64,000 bases of DNA from Escherichia phage MN03: sequence record NC_070990.1; one strand, 5' to 3'. Made by a program: the position numbers and the translations under genes. The notes beneath the pieces were generated by a model, which was not told the origin of the DNA, made no database searches, and saw only the letters and a program-made list of their open reading frames with translations. Within the stretch, counting starts at the first letter, position 1; the number at the start of each line of letters is the position of its first letter. Below are positions 1,279-43,082 of the stretch, piece by piece.

Positions 1279-1499
1279 AATGCTTGATACCTTTGAATGT
1301 GTTCAATACGGGTGGATTGAGCAAATGACGCTTTAACAGCCATTTTCCTAACTTCTTCTTTACGCTGGTTAGTGTGTACAGTATCCCAATGTTTGTTATC
1401 ACGTTGGCGCTGTAATATCTTACTACATTTGCGATGGTTTCCCGTGCTGCGATGTTTCTCACAAATAGGACACTTGCCAAAATTACTACTGAATATCAT
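1275..1499 (-). CDS. Hypothetical Cys/His-rich small protein (74 aa)
   Basis: ORF track; CPIC...HRKC pattern suggests a zinc-binding element; overlaps neighbour by 4 nt. Confidence 0.4.
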   Translation of the reverse strand: MIFSSNFGKCPICEKHRSTGNHRKCSKILQRQRDNKHWDTVHTNQRKEEVRKMAVKASFAQSTRIEHIQRYQAL

Positions 1500-1723
1500 T
1501 TTCTCAATCCCAGCTTTCTTAAGATACGGCCTAACGTTGTTTCTTGCGTGATAATATAACTGATCGCTTCACGTTCCAGCGTTTCAATCTTCATTGGCGA
1601 CGGATACCATTCACCGGTAATAACACATTTACATTCAACGCCATACTTTTTAGATAGGCGGTAATGTTGACCATTGACAAGATTCCTATAAATCGTGGTA
1701 TGTGTAATTAACATGATCGTCAC
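1496..1723 (-). CDS. Hypothetical protein (75 aa)
   Basis: ORF track; 4-nt overlap with downstream gene. Confidence 0.4.
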   Translation of the reverse strand: MTIMLITHTTIYRNLVNGQHYRLSKKYGVECKCVITGEWYPSPMKIETLEREAISYIITQETTLGRILRKLGLRK

Positions 1724-1825: not shown

Positions 1826-2725
1826 TTATGCCGCCTGACGTGCCGCCATAATTTCAGCCGCTTTACGCAATACTTCTTCCTCTTCTGCTTTCGCCGCTTG
1901 TTCGGTACGGGTAGCAACCGTTGAAGAGATACGACCGCGCAGACTTTCTAACTTCTCCTGCATAGCTGCAACAGTCTTTTCCATTTCATCAGCGTATGAA
2001 TCGAGTGATTCTAATTCCTTGCTTGATGCGTTCATCAGATAATCATCCGAGATCGCTACCGTTGAGGCCGTGACTTTCTTGATGAGTGAATCAAAGGACT
2101 TTTTAACCTTCCCAACTTCTTCACTCAGGGCGATAGTGTTATCGCTGGTTGCGCCGTTGCGCTCATCAGCCAGTAATTTGGCTTCAATACGGATTGCATT
2201 CAAGCGTTCAACCAAAGCGTAAATATCCTGATTAAAATCTTCCTTGTTTTTCGCCGGAATTTGCAGGTGTGCCGCCACGTTGTCATTGCAACCTTTGTAG
2301 AAGTTAGGATTATCCACTTCAATTGCACGACCTAATGCAAAGTTTTCGAAAGCGTTTGACCAGCGAGCGCGGTTTTGTTCCATTTTGGCCTTAATTTGCG
2401 CTTCTTTCGCATCTTCTTTAGCTTTCGCCTCACCTTCCAGATTAATCCACTTTTTACGACCATTTGCCGCATCGGTGTTAAACTTGATAGGAGTTAAGAA
2501 AGTAATTGCGGTAGCGATAACATCCATATCACGGAAACGTTCAGTTAACAGAAAATCAACCGCCGTCTGCAATACTTCCAGCTTTTTACCGTTACTGCGG
2601 AAGTGCTGCAAGTGCCCTAACAGAAAATTAGAAACATCTTGTTTGATCGCCGCGTTATTGCTACGAATGTTGTTAGCCAGTGCATTAAAACCGGATTCGT
2701 TAACCAGAGTAAAGATTTTAGCCAT
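1826..2725 (-). CDS. Hypothetical protein (~299 aa), coiled-coil-rich C-terminus
   Basis: ORF track ORF 1826..2734; start moved to ATG at 2725, which has AAGGTGA 6-7 nt upstream; no family recognised. Confidence 0.55.
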   Translation of the reverse strand: MAKIFTLVNESGFNALANNIRSNNAAIKQDVSNFLLGHLQHFRSNGKKLEVLQTAVDFLLTERFRDMDVIATAITFLTPIKFNTDAANGRKKWINLEGEAKAKEDAKEAQIKAKMEQNRARWSNAFENFALGRAIEVDNPNFYKGCNDNVAAHLQIPAKNKEDFNQDIYALVERLNAIRIEAKLLADERNGATSDNTIALSEEVGKVKKSFDSLIKKVTASTVAISDDYLMNASSKELESLDSYADEMEKTVAAMQEKLESLRGRISSTVATRTEQAAKAEEEEVLRKAAEIMAARQAA

Positions 2726-4096
2726 GATATTCACCTTTCAATTGTAAGGGCGCTATTGCCCCGCTCTCTATGAGCTTGTTTAAGTCACTATTAACTTAAC
2801 TATAACCACTCGTTGTTAAGTAGTTATAGGTAAGCGGGGCGGTCTTATCAGGAGTTAACCTTGCCGCCCCCTTATCCGTGATGTTTCATCTGGTATCTTT
2901 AATTAGTCGCTATAAACGAAGCCGACCTGATAGCGATGATCAATCATCACAATAAGGCTATGCGTCCGACTCTATTTAATTACATTGCTGTAACCGTCGG
3001 CAATATCGTCTACTTTGTTTTCGCTCCCGCTTATCCTTTTGTATCAGCTCTCTATCGCTAGTCATCGCCCACTACGGGATACTATTGCGAAAGAGTCACT
3101 AACCGCCTAATATTCCGGCGTTTTATATCTTTCAGCAGGTTTACTACATAACCCGGCTATGTACTTTCATCCTATGATGAATCTCAAGCCGTTCACATCG
3201 TAAACGTTCGCATTAAACCTTATTGTTAAATAGCAATTTGCCACTTTTTAACCACTCCCCGCCGCTCTCAATTGAGCGTTAATTCGTCGGACTTGCCTAC
3301 CCTGATTAACTTCTTTCACTGTAGCACCGTGTTAGCAATGACCTCCGCTACCCTTAACCGTGGGCGATTAGCTCAAGTCTTTGCGTGTACTCAATGAATC
3401 CGTTTATCAATGGTGACGTTTCCAGTAAGGGAATGTAAAACTGTTTACCCTGATAATTTAGGGAGTTTTACGCCGTTTTATCTGGTATGCTTTCCGATGG
3501 TTATTATCATCAAGCATATTCAACCGATATAGGAGAATGTTTAAATTATTAAAGAGCGGTAAATCTATCAGTGTGCTTTCTCACACTATGCAACTGTTAG
3601 CCGTTGTTACGCTTTTCACTGAAGCGATGATTTGCTTAGTGAGTGCTCATTATGAATCATGTTGTTTTCGCTGTCAACCGCTTTTTAATCTTTTTTCGTC
3701 GTTCCCGCTATTGGGAGGATATATCAATCAGCTTTATTTGATTGAAGATTAAGCGGTGAGGCTTAACTTATGACTCATATTGTTAAAGAGCGTTTAGCCT
3801 TTTAAAGTGTCTGCTAATCACTGTCACATTGAAGGCTTACTGATTCATTAACAGGCCGCCTACACCTGAACTAATCGCTGCACTATGTGCCACCTTTCCC
3901 GCGATACGTTGATTTGGGAACTAGTTAGCGATGTTTTGCTAACTTGTGGTTAGTATGGACTACTTTAACCACGTTTGCAACTCTTTTTATCATCTTCTTT
4001 TAATTCCTTTCCCTTATCTCGCGTGAATCTATGCGAAAGGGCAAGATGATAAGTTTTTAAAGAGCGGGATTTTTTAAGTCATCGCTGACTATGCTC

Positions 4097-21387: not shown

Positions 21388-21606
21388 ATGAAAATGATGA
21401 AACAAGCTGCATATGGTTTAATATGTTTAGGCGCAGGTGTTGTGGTATCCACCGCAGTTCCTGTAGGCGCAGTTCATCCATTAGTAACTGTCCCTGCTCC
21501 AGTAGAGAAGCTTAGCTCTCAATGCAAGCAGAGAACAATTCAAAATAACTTAGTTGTTATTTGCCCTGATGCTGAATCTAACGCTCTGAGAAAGATACTA
21601 CCTTAA
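21388..21606 (+). CDS. Small membrane protein (72 aa), possible holin-like or lysis-associated
   Basis: N-terminal MKMMKQ plus hydrophobic AAYGLICLGAGVVVSTAV; immediately upstream of the lysozyme gene. Confidence 0.4.
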   Translation: MKMMKQAAYGLICLGAGVVVSTAVPVGAVHPLVTVPAPVEKLSSQCKQRTIQNNLVVICPDAESNALRKILP

Positions 21607-21635
21607 TTTAAAGGGACTACAAAAGGAGGTTAGAA

Positions 21636-22127
21636 ATGGATAACGTCGCATTGCCACCTGTACAACTAAACTTAAGCCCAGCTGGAATGGAATTCATCAT
21701 GAAGCATGAGGGTATGAGAACAAAGGCTTATAAAGATTCCGCAGGTATCTGGACTATATGTGTAGGGGCTACGCGCGATATGAATGGTTATCCGGTTAGA
21801 CAAGGATTAACGTATTCTATAGAGGATTGTCTAGCTCTGCTAGATAGAGACACACAAGACTCTGTTCGTGCTACTCAGAAGAACATAAAGGTTCCTTTAC
21901 TAGTTCATGAGTTTGATGCACTCACTTCTTTCAACTTCAATGTTGGCAGTGGGGCTTTGAGCACATCTAAGTTAAGGAAGGTAATCAATGGAGATGTTAA
22001 GGGGGATGTTTATTCCGAATTTCTTCGTTGGGATAAAATAACGGTCAAGGGAGAGAAGCAGAGAAGTCAGGGTCTTCATAATAGAAGAGTTGCAGAAGCT
22101 AATCTTTACACCGAAGGTAAATATTAA
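21636..22127 (+). CDS. Lysozyme, glycoside hydrolase family 24 (T4-lysozyme-like) (163 aa)
   Basis: MKHEGMRTKAYKDSAGIWTICVGAT matches the GH24 catalytic Glu/Asp/Thr region; AAGGAGG SD. Confidence 0.85.
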   Translation: MDNVALPPVQLNLSPAGMEFIMKHEGMRTKAYKDSAGIWTICVGATRDMNGYPVRQGLTYSIEDCLALLDRDTQDSVRATQKNIKVPLLVHEFDALTSFNFNVGSGALSTSKLRKVINGDVKGDVYSEFLRWDKITVKGEKQRSQGLHNRRVAEANLYTEGKY

Positions 22128-32593: not shown

Positions 32594-35500
32594 ATGGCTA
32601 ACATTAAACCGTGGGAAGAAGCTTCCAAAGCTCCTGCGTATCTGAATGCCTCTCCGGAGCAACAAGCTCAAATGAGAGAACAATATAAGGCAGCAGGTGG
32701 CTCTATTCCTGAGGAACAACCAGTAGCACAACCACAACAAGAAGAACGTGGTGCTATAGGTGAGTTTGCTCAAGGTGTGTCAAATGCTCTTCAATCTGGT
32801 GGTGCAAATATTGCAGCTAGTGCTGCTAAAGGTATTGGTGGTTTAGTTGAGATTGGTGAGAATCTAGCTGGAGCACAAACTAGTTATGGTAAGCGTATCC
32901 AAGAGAACTCTCAGAACCTTCTGAAAGAACGTATGGATAAGATTGAGGATGGGATTGGTAAAACTGTCGGTCAGTATGCTGGCGTTGCTGGTGATATCGG
33001 TTTGACAGTTGCTAACCCATTGGCTGCTGCTGCTATCATCGCAGGTCGTGAGACAGGTCGTGCATATGCAGACCAAACCCCTGAAGAGGGAGAGGATAAG
33101 TCTATTCTAGATGCAGCCTTAGTTGGTGGTGCTAACTATGCAGCTCAGAGAATCCTTCCGGGTGCTGTTGGTACAGCTGAGTCCACACTTGGACGTATTG
33201 GTCAGAACGTTGCTAGTAACGCAGTGGCTGGTGCTAAAGGTGGTGCTCTTGTGGGTGCTGCTGAAGTTCAGAACAAGTATGGCGACGACAACGATCTAGC
33301 TAAGACATTGGAAGGTGTTATCGAAGAAGGGGCTATGGGTGCTGCATTTGGTGGCGCAGTTGGTGGGGTTCATGGTTTGATTAGCCGTCCAGATTCTGCT
33401 GTCTTCAAGAACACTCCAGAGTATGCGAAGACTGATATTGCTGCTGATGATGAACTGATTCGTAGTGCTAAGAATATTGATGAACTGAAAGAAGCTTATT
33501 CTAAAGCTGAAACTGCTAATGCTGCTTCTGCTCTGAACCTTCTGGATGAGAATGGATTCCGTATTACAGATGCTGTTGCTGTAGACTTCCCTGCTGCTCA
33601 GCGTATTCTTAATACTGACCAAGCTCGTGCTGAGAAAGCTGCTTCCGTTCAGAAAGAACATTCCAACATTCCGGGCCTCAACCCTTTAGCTTCTCCTGCT
33701 AAGACTCGTGGTAAAGCATTCGCTGACAACGAGCACAACCAGAAGCAGGCTGTTGCTATGAAGGATGCAATGGCTGATTACACCAAAGACAATACGAAAG
33801 CTCTTACAGATGTTCTAGATAACCTAGACCGTGAATTAACTTCTCTCCGAGCTTCTGGTGATTTTACTGGTAGTCCGATTGATATTAAGAACCGTACACA
33901 AGCCGACCGTGATTTCATTGATGCTTACAAGACTTTCTACAATGAAGCAAATCGATTCAAAGCTCGTGATGGTGAAGACTTTAATAACTTTGTAGAGAAA
34001 GCTGCTGAACTACAGAAGATGGCTGATAATGTTTCTCCAGAGATGAAGAAAGCTATCGGTGGGTTGAAGAAACTGAAAGGTATGCCTGAAGGTTTTAATC
34101 CTATCCAAGATGCTTACACTCTGAACAATACAGCTAAGTTCATGAGCAATCAAGATCGTGGTTGGACTTCCCTGACTGATGATGGATTCCGTGAGACTTC
34201 TTCACCTAGTCTGGTAATGAACACTCTCGGTGCTGCTAAGTATGCTCTGAATCGCTTCTCTTCTCAGCGTGCTCGCTCTCAACGTGTTAAGCAACAAGAA
34301 TCTAACAGTGAAGCTATCCGCTCTCTGGCTCGTGGTGATTTGGAAGTTGCTCGTGCTAAATCTACTGCTGATGAAGCTCGTGCTAAGATGGAAGAAGAAC
34401 CAGTTGTTGATGACATTAAATTTAAGACGCAAAATGACGTGGAAACCGAACCGGTTCTGGAGCCTTCTTCTAGTACTGTGACGGAAGAAAATCTTCCTTC
34501 TTCTACTCCTCAAGAAACCCCTCTCACAGCTCGTGATTTAGTTGCGCAAAGACGCGCTATCCGTCAGGCTGAACAGCGTCGCGCTGAAGAAGAGGCGGCG
34601 GCGGCTCAAGAAGCTCCGGTCGAACAAGCTCCACAGGCTGAACCTCTCCCTGCTCGTAACCCTCTAGAGGAGCGTCGTGCAATGGAACAGCAACGTGCTC
34701 AAGAAGAGGCCGCACAGGCTCCAGAACCAACCGTAGAGGAACCAACAGTCAAAGCTGAGCCATTACCTGCTCGTGCTCCTAAAGCTCCTAAGGAAGCTGT
34801 ACAGGACGTTAAACCGGCAAGTGGTGTAGAACGTTTAGCTGCTATGTCTAGTGCTGCTCGTCAGGCTACTAAAGATCGTGCAGAACGCTTTGCTCGTTCT
34901 CTGTACTCTAAGGCTGCTAAAGCTAAAGCTACTGCTGAAAACTTCTTGGCTTATAAAGGCGATCCTAAGGAACTGATGCGTCGTATTCGTCAGGAAGACA
35001 ATGCTATCAACACTGAACGTCATGAAGAAATGGCTCGTAACCAGCTGGCTTCTCAGCAAGGTATTGCTACTGCTAAGAACAACACTGTACGAACTAATTT
35101 TGCTGAATGGGTTAAGGAACGTGGTCTGCCAGAAGACATTGCTACTAAGGCATTACGTGCTGAAGAGAAAGGTTTAGGTGGGAACGTAACTAACTTGGAT
35201 AGTCTGAAACGTCGTGCTGAAAGGTTGTATCAGAAGCAGCGTGAGGATGAGTTTGATAGACTGTATCAACAAGCTCTAGAAGAGAACAAAGCTTTCGATA
35301 AGAAAGATGCTCCTAAACTGGTTGACCAGAAGAAAGAGCTTCAGTCTGAGATTGATGCTTTGATTGATTCAGAACCTTTACGTCCTGCTCAGAAAGATGC
35401 TATGCGTAAGCTGATGAATGACTTTGTAGATGGGAAGTTTAAATCTTCAGAGAAGGCTGGTAGGGAAGAGGCTTTGGAAGTTGGTCAGATGAAGGATATT

Positions 35501-37015
35501 TGGGATGGGTTTATTAACACCTACAACAGAGAAGTGAATGCCTTCAACAAAGCTAACAAGAACTCTCAGTACGAAGCTGCTGCTAAGCACTTACAGGCTC
35601 GTGAAGAACGTCTTGCTACCCTCAGGAAAAAGGCTCAGGCTCGTTCAGATGCTAAGGCTGCTGTTGAGAATGAACGTAAAACTTTAGAGGCTATTGCAGC
35701 TCAGAAGAGTGAGATTGAGAAGATGATGGAAGGTTTACCTAAACCTGTTCGTGAGGCTCAGGAATCTCGTACATTGAAACAGTTGGCTGCTCACCATGAC
35801 AAGAACTCTCCAGTTCCTCCAGAGAAGTTCCGTAGTTACATTGAACGTATCCACAACGCCGAGTCAGATTACCTTGATCGTCAGCGTCGTTTAACTGATG
35901 CAGAGGAAGATGCTCGTCAGGCCAAGTGGAACAAGATGTACGAGCAAGCGGAAGAGATGAACCGTAAGTTTGATGTGGACAAGAGAGTTAAGCGCAGTGA
36001 AGAGCTTAAAGCGGCCCAAGAGCGTGAGAATGATCTTATGGCAGTACAACGTCAACGTGATGACATTCATCGCCGCCTGATGCGTACTATGGAAGATAAG
36101 GGCATATCTAGAGAGGATGCTGAAGCGTTTGCTGGTTCCTATATGGACAACCGTTATGCACTTCTTGAGAAACCTATGACTCCTACTGAACATCAGAATG
36201 CTCGTTCTCGTATCGAAGCTGATGTTGAGAAGTTTGCTAAGAAGTACGAATCAATGACTCCTATCGAGAAAGAGATTGTTAAGGTTACTGGAGATACTGA
36301 AGGTAAGCTTGATAACTTGGATGCGGATACTAGGAAGGCTATTGAGGAGGCTCAGAAGGTTGACTCTGATATTAAGAAACTGCAAGAGGAAGAGTTGGAG
36401 ATGGAGAAGATTCGTTCTGCTCTGCCTGATGATGAAAGATCTCAAGCAAATTCTGATATCTTGGAAAGCATTAAACAACAGGAAGAGGTCTTTGCTGATA
36501 AAGTAGAGAAAGCTTTCTTGAGTGGGAAGAGCTTGGATGAGTTGGCTAGTGTGGCTGAAGTTTTAGACAGGGTTCATGGTGCAGATAAGGCTGGTAACAA
36601 CCGTCGCTTTGTACGTGCATTGCAGACTGCTGCTGAAAACAAGAAGAAGTATGGTGATAATCCAGTAGCTTGGTTTAGTGCTGATGATTACTCTGCCATT
36701 GCTAAACTTGGTGCTTCTTCCGCAGGTGGTAACAAATCCAGAGCACTGGAGAAGATCTTTGGTTCTACAGCTGAACAGGCTAAGAGTAAGTTGCTTGGTA
36801 GGGATGATGTAGCGAAGATGAGACGTGTGATTGAAGAGAACCCTGATATCAAGATTCCTTCTTACAAGACAACAAATCGTACTGAGTACTTGCAGTTCTT
36901 GGAGAAGTTTAATGACGAAGGGAAGCCTAAGATTAAACGTGGCTCATTGTCAGAGAAGCTTGAACGCAGTAAGCGTCAATCGAGACTCCGTGTAAGAGTT
37001 CGACCTAAGGAGTGA
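32594..37015 (+). CDS. Giant internal virion / ejection protein (~1473 aa), coiled-coil-rich
   Basis: Start moved from 32549 to ATG 32594 (AAAGGAGA SD); size and position typical of podovirus internal core proteins. Confidence 0.6.
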   Translation: MANIKPWEEASKAPAYLNASPEQQAQMREQYKAAGGSIPEEQPVAQPQQEERGAIGEFAQGVSNALQSGGANIAASAAKGIGGLVEIGENLAGAQTSYGKRIQENSQNLLKERMDKIEDGIGKTVGQYAGVAGDIGLTVANPLAAAAIIAGRETGRAYADQTPEEGEDKSILDAALVGGANYAAQRILPGAVGTAESTLGRIGQNVASNAVAGAKGGALVGAAEVQNKYGDDNDLAKTLEGVIEEGAMGAAFGGAVGGVHGLISRPDSAVFKNTPEYAKTDIAADDELIRSAKNIDELKEAYSKAETANAASALNLLDENGFRITDAVAVDFPAAQRILNTDQARAEKAASVQKEHSNIPGLNPLASPAKTRGKAFADNEHNQKQAVAMKDAMADYTKDNTKALTDVLDNLDRELTSLRASGDFTGSPIDIKNRTQADRDFIDAYKTFYNEANRFKARDGEDFNNFVEKAAELQKMADNVSPEMKKAIGGLKKLKGMPEGFNPIQDAYTLNNTAKFMSNQDRGWTSLTDDGFRETSSPSLVMNTLGAAKYALNRFSSQRARSQRVKQQESNSEAIRSLARGDLEVARAKSTADEARAKMEEEPVVDDIKFKTQNDVETEPVLEPSSSTVTEENLPSSTPQETPLTARDLVAQRRAIRQAEQRRAEEEAAAAQEAPVEQAPQAEPLPARNPLEERRAMEQQRAQEEAAQAPEPTVEEPTVKAEPLPARAPKAPKEAVQDVKPASGVERLAAMSSAARQATKDRAERFARSLYSKAAKAKATAENFLAYKGDPKELMRRIRQEDNAINTERHEEMARNQLASQQGIATAKNNTVRTNFAEWVKERGLPEDIATKALRAEEKGLGGNVTNLDSLKRRAERLYQKQREDEFDRLYQQALEENKAFDKKDAPKLVDQKKELQSEIDALIDSEPLRPAQKDAMRKLMNDFVDGKFKSSEKAGREEALEVGQMKDIWDGFINTYNREVNAFNKANKNSQYEAAAKHLQAREERLATLRKKAQARSDAKAAVENERKTLEAIAAQKSEIEKMMEGLPKPVREAQESRTLKQLAAHHDKNSPVPPEKFRSYIERIHNAESDYLDRQRRLTDAEEDARQAKWNKMYEQAEEMNRKFDVDKRVKRSEELKAAQERENDLMAVQRQRDDIHRRLMRTMEDKGISREDAEAFAGSYMDNRYALLEKPMTPTEHQNARSRIEADVEKFAKKYESMTPIEKEIVKVTGDTEGKLDNLDADTRKAIEEAQKVDSDIKKLQEEELEMEKIRSALPDDERSQANSDILESIKQQEEVFADKVEKAFLSGKSLDELASVAEVLDRVHGADKAGNNRRFVRALQTAAENKKKYGDNPVAWFSADDYSAIAKLGASSAGGNKSRALEKIFGSTAEQAKSKLLGRDDVAKMRRVIEENPDIKIPSYKTTNRTEYLQFLEKFNDEGKPKIKRGSLSEKLERSKRQSRLRVRVRPKE

Positions 37016-39880: not shown

Positions 39881-41366
<1,486 letters not shown>

Positions 41367-41367
<1 letters not shown>

Positions 41368-41627
41368 TATTCTATTCCACGCTCTTTCAGAGCTTCTAAC
41401 AATCCATTGTGATTGGCAGCACATTCTGTGTACTGGTCCTGATACCACTCCAACGTAGTGGCTAATGCTTTTCCTTGAGCACTTTCTAAAAGAGGCAGGT
41501 CAACCCTACATTCAGCTTTTAGGTTTGTTGGTAAGGGCATTGATTGCCTGCTGTTGTCGCTCGTTGAACAAGCTGACATACTCATCACTAGCGCAGACAT
41601 TATAAAAAACTGGTTTAGTTTTCTCAT
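41367..41627 (-). CDS. Putative o-spanin (outer-membrane lipoprotein), overlapped out-of-frame with the i-spanin (~86 aa)
   Basis: MRKLNQFFIMSALVMSMSAC then STSDNS: lipoprotein-type signal with Cys, Ser at +2; starts inside the i-spanin gene in another frame. Confidence 0.45.
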
Positions 41628-41862
41628 AATGCATCTCTTTATAAACGGTTTCCGTGTTCTTCTTCCAGTTAGATAAACCGGTAAGAACCCTCTGAGCAAC
41701 TTCATCAGCTGCTCTATTTCTTTCAATCTCTAACTCTTGTTGATGTTTCTCTTTGTCCAGATTACTGCTGTCTGTTTGATATTCGTTAAACTTCATACCA
41801 CCAAAGAATACAAGAGCTGAGAAAACGATAAACCCTAAGTTATCACTTAATGTGTTTTGCAT
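41512..41862 (-). CDS. Putative i-spanin (N-terminal transmembrane helix plus coiled coil) (~116 aa)
   Basis: MQNTLSDNLGFIVFSALVFFGG TM segment then QQELEIERNRAADEVAQRV coiled coil; start moved to ATG 41862 (GGAG SD) because the track start sits in the terminator. Confidence 0.5.
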   Translation of the reverse strand: MQNTLSDNLGFIVFSALVFFGGMKFNEYQTDSSNLDKEKHQQELEIERNRAADEVAQRVLTGLSNWKKNTETVYKEMHYEKTKPVFYNVCASDEYVSLFNERQQQAINALTNKPKS

Positions 41863-41875
41863 GTTGTCTCCAACG

Positions 41876-41899
41876 AAAAAAGCCACCCGGAGGTGGCTA
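41876..41899 (-). terminator. Rho-independent terminator between SSB and spanin genes
   Basis: Minus-strand agccacc-tccg-ggtggct followed by tttttcgtt. Confidence 0.7.
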
Positions 41900-41919
41900 A
41901 GCTATAACAAGGAGAGTTA

Positions 41920-42666
41920 TTAGAATGGGCTATCGTTGTCGTCTTCGTAAGTAGAAGCAGGCTCTTTATCAATCGTAGGGATTGAAGGAGTAGCTTCTTT
42001 CTGCTCTGTTTCAGAAGCACGAGTAATTTCACGACCAGCCAGAGGCATATTCTTAGCGTCATTAGCTTGAGTAAGCAGGTTGCGCTGGAACGGGAACATC
42101 AGTTGATAGGATGCTACGTTCTCATCGGTTTCAGCATACGGTTCGAAGAATACCAGAGGACTACGAGCTTCACCAACTGCTGCACGATATTTGGTTGGGA
42201 TTGGAGAAATGGTCTTGATGGAGTTTTTAACTTCACCAGCTTTGTTAGTGTAAGAGTTAACCAGAATGTTAACAGGCTGACCTAACAGAACATCTTTGAA
42301 CCAAGACAGATCACCTTTCAGTGCTTGAATACTTGGGTCAATCATCTTGCAAAGATCAAGAATACCAGAGTTCTTAGCTCGTGGGTTTACATCATAACTC
42401 TTGAACTGGCAAGCTGGACGTGGTTCTAATGCCTTACCATCGGAATCTTTACCAGTAGCATCAACACCAATCAGCTCGAAAGCTAAATCCATACGGAAAG
42501 CCGGATTCTTAGGAGTTACTGCTTTGGTCTTCGGGTCAATCCAAGGGTCACGATTGTGAACACCCAAACCTACTACACGAACGATACGTGCTTCGTATTC
42601 ACCATCAGGGATTACATCGTAGTTGGATTTACGGGAAGAAGTTGCGATAGTTGGAATCATAGACAT
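41920..42666 (-). CDS. ssb: Single-stranded DNA-binding protein (248 aa)
   Basis: Acidic C-terminal tail ending EDDNDSPF, resembling the SSB C-terminal D-D-D-I-P-F tip; next to replication genes; phage promoter motif upstream. Confidence 0.55.
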   Translation of the reverse strand: MSMIPTIATSSRKSNYDVIPDGEYEARIVRVVGLGVHNRDPWIDPKTKAVTPKNPAFRMDLAFELIGVDATGKDSDGKALEPRPACQFKSYDVNPRAKNSGILDLCKMIDPSIQALKGDLSWFKDVLLGQPVNILVNSYTNKAGEVKNSIKTISPIPTKYRAAVGEARSPLVFFEPYAETDENVASYQLMFPFQRNLLTQANDAKNMPLAGREITRASETEQKEATPSIPTIDKEPASTYEDDNDSPF

Positions 42667-42725
42667 AGTGTAATTTCCTTATTTAATTTGAAAGATTGTT
42701 GCTCTCTTTGAGCGGTTATGTATAG

Positions 42726-42734
42726 TATACATTA
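42726..42734 (-). promoter_or_regulatory. Phage-type promoter element TAATGTATA (minus strand), ~60 nt upstream of the SSB start
   Basis: Plus-strand tatacatta at 42726-42734. Confidence 0.45.
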
Positions 42735-42797
42735 CGCTTATACCGATAAGAGTACTATATAATATAAGAACCTTTGGTAGTAGATATAACACACTAG

Positions 42798-42806
42798 TAA
42801 TGTATA
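42798..42806 (+). promoter_or_regulatory. Phage-type promoter element TAATGTATA (plus strand), pointing into an ORF-free AT-rich region
   Basis: ctagTAATGTATAtattg; divergent from the SSB promoter about 60 bp away. Confidence 0.35.
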
Positions 42807-42902
42807 TATTGTATAGCTGATAAAGTTATTGCAGGCTTGTATATTGGGCAATTCACAGAATCCCTTGCAAGTACCGAAGGGCAGGAGCCACCTGCGAGAT
42901 AA

Positions 42903-42968
42903 AAATAGAGAATTAAGGAATCCTTGATTTAGGTTGTAGGGACTCCTAGGGACTTTGATTCTCTATTT
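42903..42968. repeat. 11-bp inverted repeat (aaatagagaat / attctctattt) flanking a 44-bp spacer with tagggact direct repeats
   Basis: Directly visible: 42903-42913 is the reverse complement of 42958-42968. Confidence 0.6.
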
Positions 42969-43082
42969 AAAAGAATATTAATTACTTATTACCTAAATAA
43001 TTAACTAACTTACTTAAACCAAATTCAAGAATAATAGATAAAAAGATTATTCCTAAGAAAGCTAAAAAGTAAAGGATATAAG

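Follow-up and report, generated by a model that had tools for sequence, protein, structure and literature searches.

The spanins of 677 phage genomes were curated by Kongari et al. 2018 (PMC6139136), who classed those of phiEco32 as an "overlapped" ("ovl") two-component spanin with an overlap of 116 nt. Their Table S4 places the phiEco32 i-spanin gene at 35417-35768 and the o-spanin gene at 35272-35533, with products of 116 and 86 aa. In SpaninDB, where members of a family share 40% identity or more across 40% or more of the length, the phiEco32 i-spanin belongs to family JH2 together with those of Felix O1-like phages, NJ01, ECBP2 and KBNP1711, and the o-spanin belongs to a family shared by NJ01, ECBP2, KBNP1711 and phiEco32 (PMC6139136). 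Spanin genes located at a distance from other lysis genes have also been described: T4 pseT.3/pseT.2 is the accepted case of unlinked spanin genes (Kongari et al. 2018, PMC6139136), and in the C3-morphotype podophage Privateer the endolysin and the spanins are 12 kb apart.

We analysed a stretch of 64,000 nucleotides from Escherichia phage MN03 (NC_070990.1), which we call the window. It belongs to a phiEco32-like Kuravirus, with 98-99% nucleotide identity to phiEco32 and ShigP1; over positions 40200..43000 the identity is 99.3% with Shigella phage ShigP1 and 98.3% with phiEco32. The i-spanin and o-spanin encoded here are respectively 100% and 98.8% identical to the phiEco32 proteins, the sole residue difference being T22 in our o-spanin for M22 in that of phiEco32. 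Phages Paul, SU10 and 172-1 encode exactly this o-spanin, identity of the spanins to those of NJ01 is 93-97%, and the pair falls within the JH2 (i-spanin) and NJ01/phiEco32 (o-spanin) families of SpaninDB. Relative to gp39 and gp38 of phiEco32 the lengths, the 116-nt overlap and the neighboring genes are the same, and nothing of substance differs. A preliminary description of the window had proposed an overlapped i-spanin/o-spanin pair at 41512..41862 and 41367..41627; the open reading frames place both genes at exactly these coordinates, on the minus strand, and the reading agrees with the curated phiEco32 annotation (i-spanin gene of 351 nt, o-spanin gene of 261 nt, overlap of 116 nt). The overlapped spanin pair is therefore already known and curated, in the spanin database since 2018 and in several GenBank records, with those of ShigP1, EK5 and Paul already annotating the pair as spanins. 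We regard it as very likely that the two genes encode the two-component spanin of a phiEco32-like Kuravirus; the predicted spanin function of the Kuravirus/Felix O1-type family rests on sequence signals, architecture and context.

The i-spanin gene (homologue of phiEco32 gene 39) occupies 41512..41862 on the minus strand and encodes a protein of 116 aa that starts with MQNTLSDNLGFIVFSALVFFGGMKFNEYQTD, ends with NVCASDEYVSLFNERQQQAINALTNKPKS and has the N-terminal sequence MQNTLSDNLGFIVFSALVFFGGMKF. A Shine-Dalgarno sequence, GGAG, lies 5 nt 5' of the ATG (41868..41871, minus strand), where the GenBank record of phage Paul also marks a ribosome-binding site. By hydropathy, the protein has a single strong hydrophobic stretch near the N-terminus (peak at residues 5-23), and we assigned the transmembrane helix to residues ~9-23, LGFIVFSALVFFGGM, encoded at 41794..41838 (minus strand). 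This is in line with a GenBank note on the near-identical Paul i-spanin, for which TMpred placed a transmembrane domain at residues 8-23, and with a single-sequence AF2 model that is all-helical, with a helix at residues 3-28, at low confidence (pLDDT 58). The candidate is thus, as judged from its sequence, a small inner-membrane protein with one N-terminal transmembrane domain. Its profile match in PHROG is phrog_1152, "Rz-like spanin" (1.8e-37); phmmer against PDB sequences returned nothing meaningful.

Two features of the i-spanin call for qualification. The preliminary description had labeled it a transmembrane-plus-coiled-coil protein, and of this label the transmembrane segment stands and the coiled coil is not supported: for the phiEco32 protein the tables of Kongari et al. 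2018 (PMC6139136) give 0 coiled coils by Pepcoil and 61% helix by Jpred, which makes it one that is predicted to be helical, and the same authors list more than 120 i-spanins that have no predicted coiled coils. They also flagged the N-terminus of the phiEco32 i-spanin as net negative. Because of this charge, the positive-inside rule alone does not predict the N-in/C-out topology that an i-spanin requires, and we have assumed N-in topology rather than predicted it.

The o-spanin gene (homologue of phiEco32 gene 38, with corrected start) occupies 41367..41627 on the minus strand, and its 261 nt encode a precursor of 86 aa and a predicted mature protein of 67 aa. The N-terminus, MRKLNQFFIMSALVMSMSA followed by CSTSD from the cleavage site onward, has a basic n-region (R2/K3) and an uncharged hydrophobic core. 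Codons for the signal peptide (residues 1-19) and Cys20 span 41568..41627 (minus strand, with Cys20 at 41568..41570); the lipobox reads M-S-A-C and the +2 residue is Ser. In E. coli, Ser at +2 directs a lipoprotein to the outer membrane. The o-spanin candidate therefore combines, in its sequence, a signal peptidase II lipobox with a residue other than Asp at +2. For the identical protein of phage Paul, a GenBank note records a LipoP prediction of SpII cleavage between residues 19 and 20 with a score of 18.0. The preliminary description had put forward transmembrane and lipoprotein prediction as checks on the pair, and the Paul depositors had in effect already run both. An N-terminus composed of Met, K/R, a hydrophobic stretch and a lipobox is kept in o-spanins down to 27-35% identity, and the lipobox cysteine, Cys20, is invariant in distant homologues (27-38% identity).

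Disulfide-capable periplasmic cysteines are present in both sequences. In the i-spanin this is Cys90, which lies in the periplasmic domain and is invariant in 5 divergent homologues (27-38% identity); in the o-spanin these are Cys40 and Cys69, of which Cys69 is likewise invariant in 5 divergent homologues. The o-spanin ends with ...NHNGLLEALKERGIE and carries no hydrophobic segment there. A unimolecular spanin of the T1 gp11 type, which pairs an N-terminal lipobox with a C-terminal transmembrane domain, was ruled out, as this lipoprotein has no such domain. In PHROG, the o-spanin matches phrog_2425, labeled "unknown function" (3.5e-27), together with a weak match to phrog_456, "Rz-like spanin". 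A scan of all six frames of the 64-kb window for lipobox ORFs of at least 45 aa returned the o-spanin as its sole match. About 13 kb of the genome lies outside the window and may encode another outer-membrane disruptor.

Many database records start the o-spanin 29 codons too late, which leaves an ORF of 174 nt (57 aa) from which the signal peptide is lost; a 57-aa hypothetical protein is called in RefSeq phiEco32, SU10 and ShigP1 among Kuravirus records. Support for the upstream start came from L015, an IMG/VR sequence with 48% identity. Because the o-frame of L015 opens just 4 codons ahead of the conserved Met, the start is fixed at 41627. The preliminary description had this start right where many database records do not.

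The overlap extends over 116 nt (41512..41627, minus strand). As the o-spanin start lies 235 nt into the i-spanin gene, frame arithmetic gives it the +1 frame relative to that gene, which bears out the description of an out-of-frame lipoprotein that starts inside the first gene; the o-spanin gene extends 145 nt beyond the i-spanin stop codon. An o-spanin gene may be embedded in, overlap or adjoin its partner on the same strand, and here it is the overlap that is found and that is conserved in relatives. Both frames were intact in all 20 of the related loci examined, down to 27-38% protein identity, and the proposal that conservation of the overlap be examined in related phages thus gave a positive answer. 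We also compared how nucleotide diversity is distributed over codon positions in 14 distinct Gordonclarkvirinae sequences. In the part occupied by the i-spanin alone, diversity in the i frame was 0.109/0.064/0.268 at first, second and third positions, and in the part occupied by the o-spanin alone it was 0.161/0.048/0.315 in the o frame. Because diversity is dominated by third positions in each part, both parts evolve as coding sequence, each in the frame of its own protein. Across the overlap, the mean for the same 14 sequences was 0.076, roughly half of the 0.147 and 0.175 in the flanks, and a 68-nt stretch of the overlap (41561..41628) is ~82% identical in DNA sequence to Felixounavirus spanin loci.

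The other lysis genes of the window are found elsewhere. A holin-like gene at 21388..21606 (plus strand) matches phrog_11161, holin (2.8e-50), which is an annotation label only, and is followed by a GH24 endolysin gene at 21636..22127 (plus strand; Pfam PF00959 Phage_lysozyme, 3.7e-32; phrog_7, endolysin). Both lie inside the structural module, 19.2 kb from the spanin pair and on the opposite strand, so the claim that the lysis functions are dispersed over ~20 kb, with holin-like and GH24 genes at 21388..22127, proved accurate. A location in or beside the lysis cassette is usual for spanin genes, though not obligatory, and the pair in the window lies apart from it. Its neighbors in a leftward cluster are the gene 40 homologue (a conserved unknown protein), a macro-domain protein and the phage sigma factor, and further genes encode a GTP-binding-domain protein, a dNMP kinase and an exonuclease. 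In every member of the Gordonclarkvirinae examined, L015 among them, the pair has these same neighbors. The dispersed layout is conserved in the subfamily, and with T4 as precedent it is not new. In more distant phages, homologues occur close to lysis genes: those of Salmonella phage Sasha (i-spanin, 34% identity, 2e-10; o-spanin, 34% identity, 9e-16) belong to a cassette ordered holin, endolysin, membrane protein, i-spanin and o-spanin, and those of the Felix O1-like phage heid are two genes away from a putative lysin. As for the gene 40 product itself (41920..42666), its acidic ...EDDNDSPF tail suggested a single-stranded-DNA-binding protein like T7 gp2.5. This idea was unsupported: there was no match among PDB sequences, BLASTP against T7 gp2.5 was not significant, and the AF2 model (pLDDT 37) was unusable.

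The phage sigma factor gp36 recognizes a single element, tAATGTAtA, and gp36-type promoters have been mapped 5' of phiEco32 genes 6, 13, 26, 40, 58 and 68 (PMC8948821, PMC4331800). An exact match to the motif, TAATGTATA, is present at 42726..42734 (minus strand), ~60 nt ahead of the gene 40 homologue. This gp36-type element is the likely source of the transcript that reaches the spanin genes. Between the gene 40 homologue and the i-spanin, a terminator scan identified an intrinsic-terminator-like hairpin, AGCCACCTCCGGGTGGCT (41881..41898, minus strand), with a T-tract at 41875..41880. The GC-rich hairpin is entered as a terminator in the phage Paul record and is conserved in the relatives read. 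A near-consensus sigma-70 promoter at 40926..40955 (minus strand), inside the macro-domain gene and upstream of the sigma gene, fits the prediction in the literature. As part of the leftward middle-gene cluster, the spanin genes are probably transcribed from the promoter of gene 40 (P40) by read-through of the hairpin terminator. Given their position right after a terminator and 19 kb away from the lysis genes, we can only infer the level and timing of their expression.

These features suggest how the pair would act. The 116-aa product would be anchored in the inner membrane by its N-terminal helix and would extend a mostly helical domain of 88 aa into the periplasm. The 86-aa product would be exported, cut by signal peptidase II before Cys20 and lipidated at that cysteine, and the Lol pathway would then carry it to the inner leaflet of the outer membrane, because its +2 residue is Ser and not Asp. 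The periplasmic domains would join by their C-terminal parts into a complex that spans the periplasm through the peptidoglycan mesh, with both spanins probably present as disulfide-linked dimers by way of the conserved Cys90 of the i-spanin and Cys40/Cys69 of the o-spanin. The spanins would be made independently of the late holin/endolysin transcript and would stay inactive until the wall is degraded. In the lambda model, intact peptidoglycan keeps spanin complexes inactive, so that such independent synthesis is harmless. Once the distant holin and GH24 endolysin had destroyed the wall, the freed complexes would draw the inner and outer membranes into contact and breach the latter, and lysis would thereby be completed. 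The formation of the complex, its disulfides, the fusion of the membranes and the timing are points that we infer from the lambda and T4 paradigms.

While reading the related loci we observed that the overlap, kept whole in most, is split by an HNH homing endonuclease gene in at least 8 of ~94 Gordonclarkvirinae records. Two variants of the element, ~67% identical to each other, are present: one in Bas86, Bas87, SU7 and PAS59, and the other in KM01, E20-1 and EK010. KM01 shares 98% identity with the window on either side of the insert, which here is 545 nt long and follows nt 288 of the segment that runs from the i-spanin start to the o-spanin stop, a site within the lipobox codons (about window position 41574/41575). 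The insert gives the i-spanin a new C-terminus, ...FNQRQKEAERVLKSKE, in place of ...FNERQQQAINALTNKPKS, each ending at a stop codon. It carries the HNH ORF, and its 3' end, in another frame, provides a replacement lipoprotein signal, ...KKKLLSCTGILLAFSLSAC (in the other variant, MLTKKKQKSCLVILLASSLMAC), that is fused to the old mature o-spanin. The old o-spanin start, upstream in the split loci, reaches a stop codon without a lipobox cysteine. The Bas87 record treats the interrupted i-spanin as a two-piece join, and we asked whether the insert could be an intron. An Rfam E-value scan of loci L004 and L008 found no group I or group II intron, and the upstream i-spanin copy ends in a conserved in-frame C-terminus and a stop codon of its own. 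We therefore rejected the intron and favor a free-standing homing endonuclease gene as the predicted nature of the insert.

The EK010 and E20-1 loci are mosaic. On the i-spanin side they match Suseptimavirus ECBP2 at 91% identity and the window at 80%, whereas on the side of the mature o-spanin they match the window at 96.6% (97% Kuravirus-like) and ECBP2 at 78%; the endonuclease gene they carry shares 95% identity with its counterpart in the Kuravirus KM01. These mosaic flanks suggest transfer between genera, as would be expected of homing with co-conversion. The window itself carries an uninterrupted spanin allele. We would put at about even the chances that the overlap, the best-conserved DNA of the locus, is a recurrent HNH homing site, at which the element brings a replacement C-terminus and a replacement signal and converts an overlapped pair into a separated one with no product lost, and that the window represents the empty, cleavable allele.

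Could the lipoprotein itself be illusory? The i-spanin-like gene alone might be real, with the second product either the 57-aa protein of RefSeq (MSMSAC..., with no signal peptide) or no protein at all, and with the lipobox there by chance. The 174-nt ORF is what most database records contain, and the Shine-Dalgarno sequence ahead of the start at 41627 is weak (AGAG). A loose lipobox pattern occurs 0.6 times per shuffled window, and 27% of synonymous recodings of the i-spanin gene leave the o-frame open throughout the overlap, so the pattern by itself is weakly significant. Against this, variation in the o-only part is dominated by third positions in the o frame (0.161/0.048/0.315), the lipoprotein N-terminus is conserved down to 27-35% identity with a LipoP score of 18 for the identical protein, and the relatives split by the endonuclease gene carry a new lipoprotein signal peptide before the mature part. 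The pattern statistics are weak, and it is conservation that settles the question, lifting the predicted overlapped pair above chance; a chance lipobox seems to us barely credible. The lipoprotein and its partner might instead serve another function in the envelope, such as superinfection exclusion or receptor masking, and be expressed with the middle genes rather than for lysis. T5 Llp and phi80 Cor are phage outer-membrane lipoproteins that provide models for such a role. The genes do lie in a middle-gene cluster among genes of nucleotide metabolism and transcription, 19 kb from the holin and endolysin; the proteins have no similarity to experimentally tested spanins (lambda Rz/Rz1, T4 PseT.3/PseT.2), and the PHROG family of the o-spanin is labeled "unknown function". 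However, homologues of both proteins sit within the canonical lysis cassette of Sasha, the lipoprotein is always paired by overlap with a type-II membrane protein, and both partners have conserved periplasmic cysteines. Moreover, the window holds no other spanin candidate, and unlinked spanin genes are known from T4. We therefore hold a non-lytic envelope function to be quite improbable.

It is also conceivable that the pair is a spanin by descent that has become dispensable or is poorly expressed, with some other factor, such as a disruptin-like peptide or an unrecognized protein, disrupting the outer membrane. Such a state would account for the position away from the lysis genes and would be in keeping with the terminator-like hairpin just ahead of the i-spanin start; some phages lack spanins and have other disruptors of the outer membrane (passages in Kongari et al. 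2018, PMC6139136; phiKT), and the locus tolerates insertion of a homing endonuclease gene. Yet purifying selection acts on both frames in all relatives, and all of the endonuclease-carrying loci read keep both products, by means of the replacement C-terminus and signal peptide. That both products are complete in the split loci argues for selection on function, and we consider dispensability highly improbable. A working two-component spanin remains our reading of the pair.

The practical value of these results is for gene annotation. Many records give the o-spanin a wrong start, and because PHROG 2425 remains unlabeled as to function, automated pipelines keep missing the o-spanin. The locus also illustrates two known points, namely that spanin genes may sit apart from the holin and endolysin, and that a homing endonuclease can separate overlapping genes. 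The second point was made by the comparison of T5 with Shivani and phiR201, where a GIY-YIG homing endonuclease gene separates an overlapped spanin pair (Kongari et al. 2018, PMC6139136). [quoted passage not shown] The Gordonclarkvirinae element differs from this GIY-YIG gene in being of the HNH type, in sitting exactly in the lipobox codons and in encoding the new signal at its 3' end. The HNH split is thus a second example of a known phenomenon.

The tested spanins of T4 resemble those of the window in setting. PseT.3 and PseT.2 (117 and 83 aa, as mature-gene products, against 116 and 86 aa here) are likewise encoded away from the holin and endolysin, among earlier-class genes of nucleotide and RNA metabolism, but their genes are separated whereas those of the window overlap. 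BLASTP of the window spanins against the two T4 proteins found no similarity, and despite the similar sizes and unlinked context we make no claim of common descent. The preliminary description had called the architecture "classic", which holds for the overlap and does not extend to membership in the sequence families of lambda Rz/Rz1: neither protein had an Rz/Rz1 match in Pfam at E<=1, nor a match in NCBIfam. By these searches the pair has no detectable sequence relationship to P2 LysB/LysC or lambda Rz/Rz1, its periplasmic domains are shorter (88 and 67 aa) and have no predicted coiled coil, and its genes are outside any lysis cassette. The organization is nonetheless that of these prototypes. 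Lambda Rz/Rz1 (embedded) and P2 LysB/LysC (the "overlapped" prototype) each consist of a type-II inner-membrane protein and an outer-membrane lipoprotein, as predicted here, and in both the lipoprotein gene begins within the first gene, shifted to its +1 frame, as it does in the window. The likeness is closest with P2 LysB/LysC, in which the second gene runs beyond the end of the first (Kongari et al. 2018), just as the o-spanin gene does here.

The o-spanin is called as a 174-nt (57-aa) ORF starting MSMSAC... in the RefSeq/GenBank records of phiEco32, SU10, ShigP1, XT18, several BASEL phages, and others. In the coordinates of the related phage loci themselves, this short ORF lies at 2668..2841 in both L001 and L002 and at 1468..1641 in SU10 (L007), among others, equivalent to 41367..41540 in the window. 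Because the annotated ORF begins at MSMSAC..., the signal peptide is lost from the predicted protein; PHROG 2425, the family that contains the o-spanin, carries the label "unknown function". The o-spanin start, within the dual-coding overlap, is also where the DNA resembles that of Felixounavirus: 68 nt (41561..41628) are approximately 82% identical to spanin loci in more than 200 Felixounavirus genomes, and the overall identity of the spanin proteins is just 30% or so. Dual-coding constraint or past exchange could be the cause of this likeness.

Downstream, the start codon of a macro-domain (Appr-1-p processing) gene (40927..41367, minus strand) overlaps the o-spanin stop codon (ATAATG). In a comparison that takes in loci L014 and L018, this gene is missing from NJ01, ES17, O18-011, Bas94, and others, in which the o-spanin is followed directly by the sigma-factor gene, and by this pattern of absence it is an accessory gene of the spanin-containing operon. 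Within the macro-domain gene, immediately upstream of the phage sigma-factor gene, there is a near-consensus sigma-70 promoter (40926..40955, minus strand; TGGACA-18-TATAAT, 11/12), in agreement with the cited bioinformatic prediction for phiEco32 gene 37/36.

Upstream of the spanins is a conserved homologue of phiEco32 gene 40 (41920..42666, minus strand; 248 aa; phrog_6599, "unknown function"). It ends in an acidic C-terminal tail, ...YEDDNDSPF, which resembles the tails of single-stranded-DNA-binding proteins. A search of PDB sequences gave no match, BLASTP comparison with T7 gp2.5 was not significant, and the AF2 model has a pLDDT of 37. On both strands, the 315-nt intergenic region upstream of this gene has a cluster of sites matching the phage-sigma promoter element TAATGTATA (42716..42815): exact matches at 42726..42734 (minus) and 42798..42806 (plus), and copies with one mismatch at 42716..42724 and 42807..42815 (both plus). 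The plus-strand copies would be directed away from gene 40, antisense to the leftward genes.

An HNH homing endonuclease gene, inserted exactly at the lipobox codons (window equivalent ~41574/41575), splits the i-spanin/o-spanin overlap in at least 8 of approximately 94 related phages. Such loci are found in Bas87 (L004 1992..3029), KM01 (L023 564..1604), SU7 (L008), E20-1 (L024), and EK010 (L025); an Rfam scan of L004 and L008 identified no intron. The insert provides the i-spanin with a new C-terminus and the o-spanin with a new lipoprotein signal peptide, the latter encoded in a second frame across the 3' end of the HNH gene, and the overlapped pair thereby becomes a separated one. In EK010 and E20-1 the flanks of the HNH gene are mosaic, consistent with co-conversion between genera. 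In some Kuraviruses (SU10, L007 2022..2435; also CHD5UKE1, 1-6af, and FH3), a different HNH gene, on an insert of approximately 424 nt beside the terminator hairpin, separates the gene 40 homologue from the i-spanin. With HNH genes at two sites, the spanin neighbourhood is a hotspot for homing endonuclease genes. An endonuclease-split spanin pair has precedent in T5/Shivani (Kongari 2018, PMC6139136), although the endonuclease inserted there is of the GIY-YIG type, whereas that of Bas87, KM01, and the other relatives is of the HNH type.
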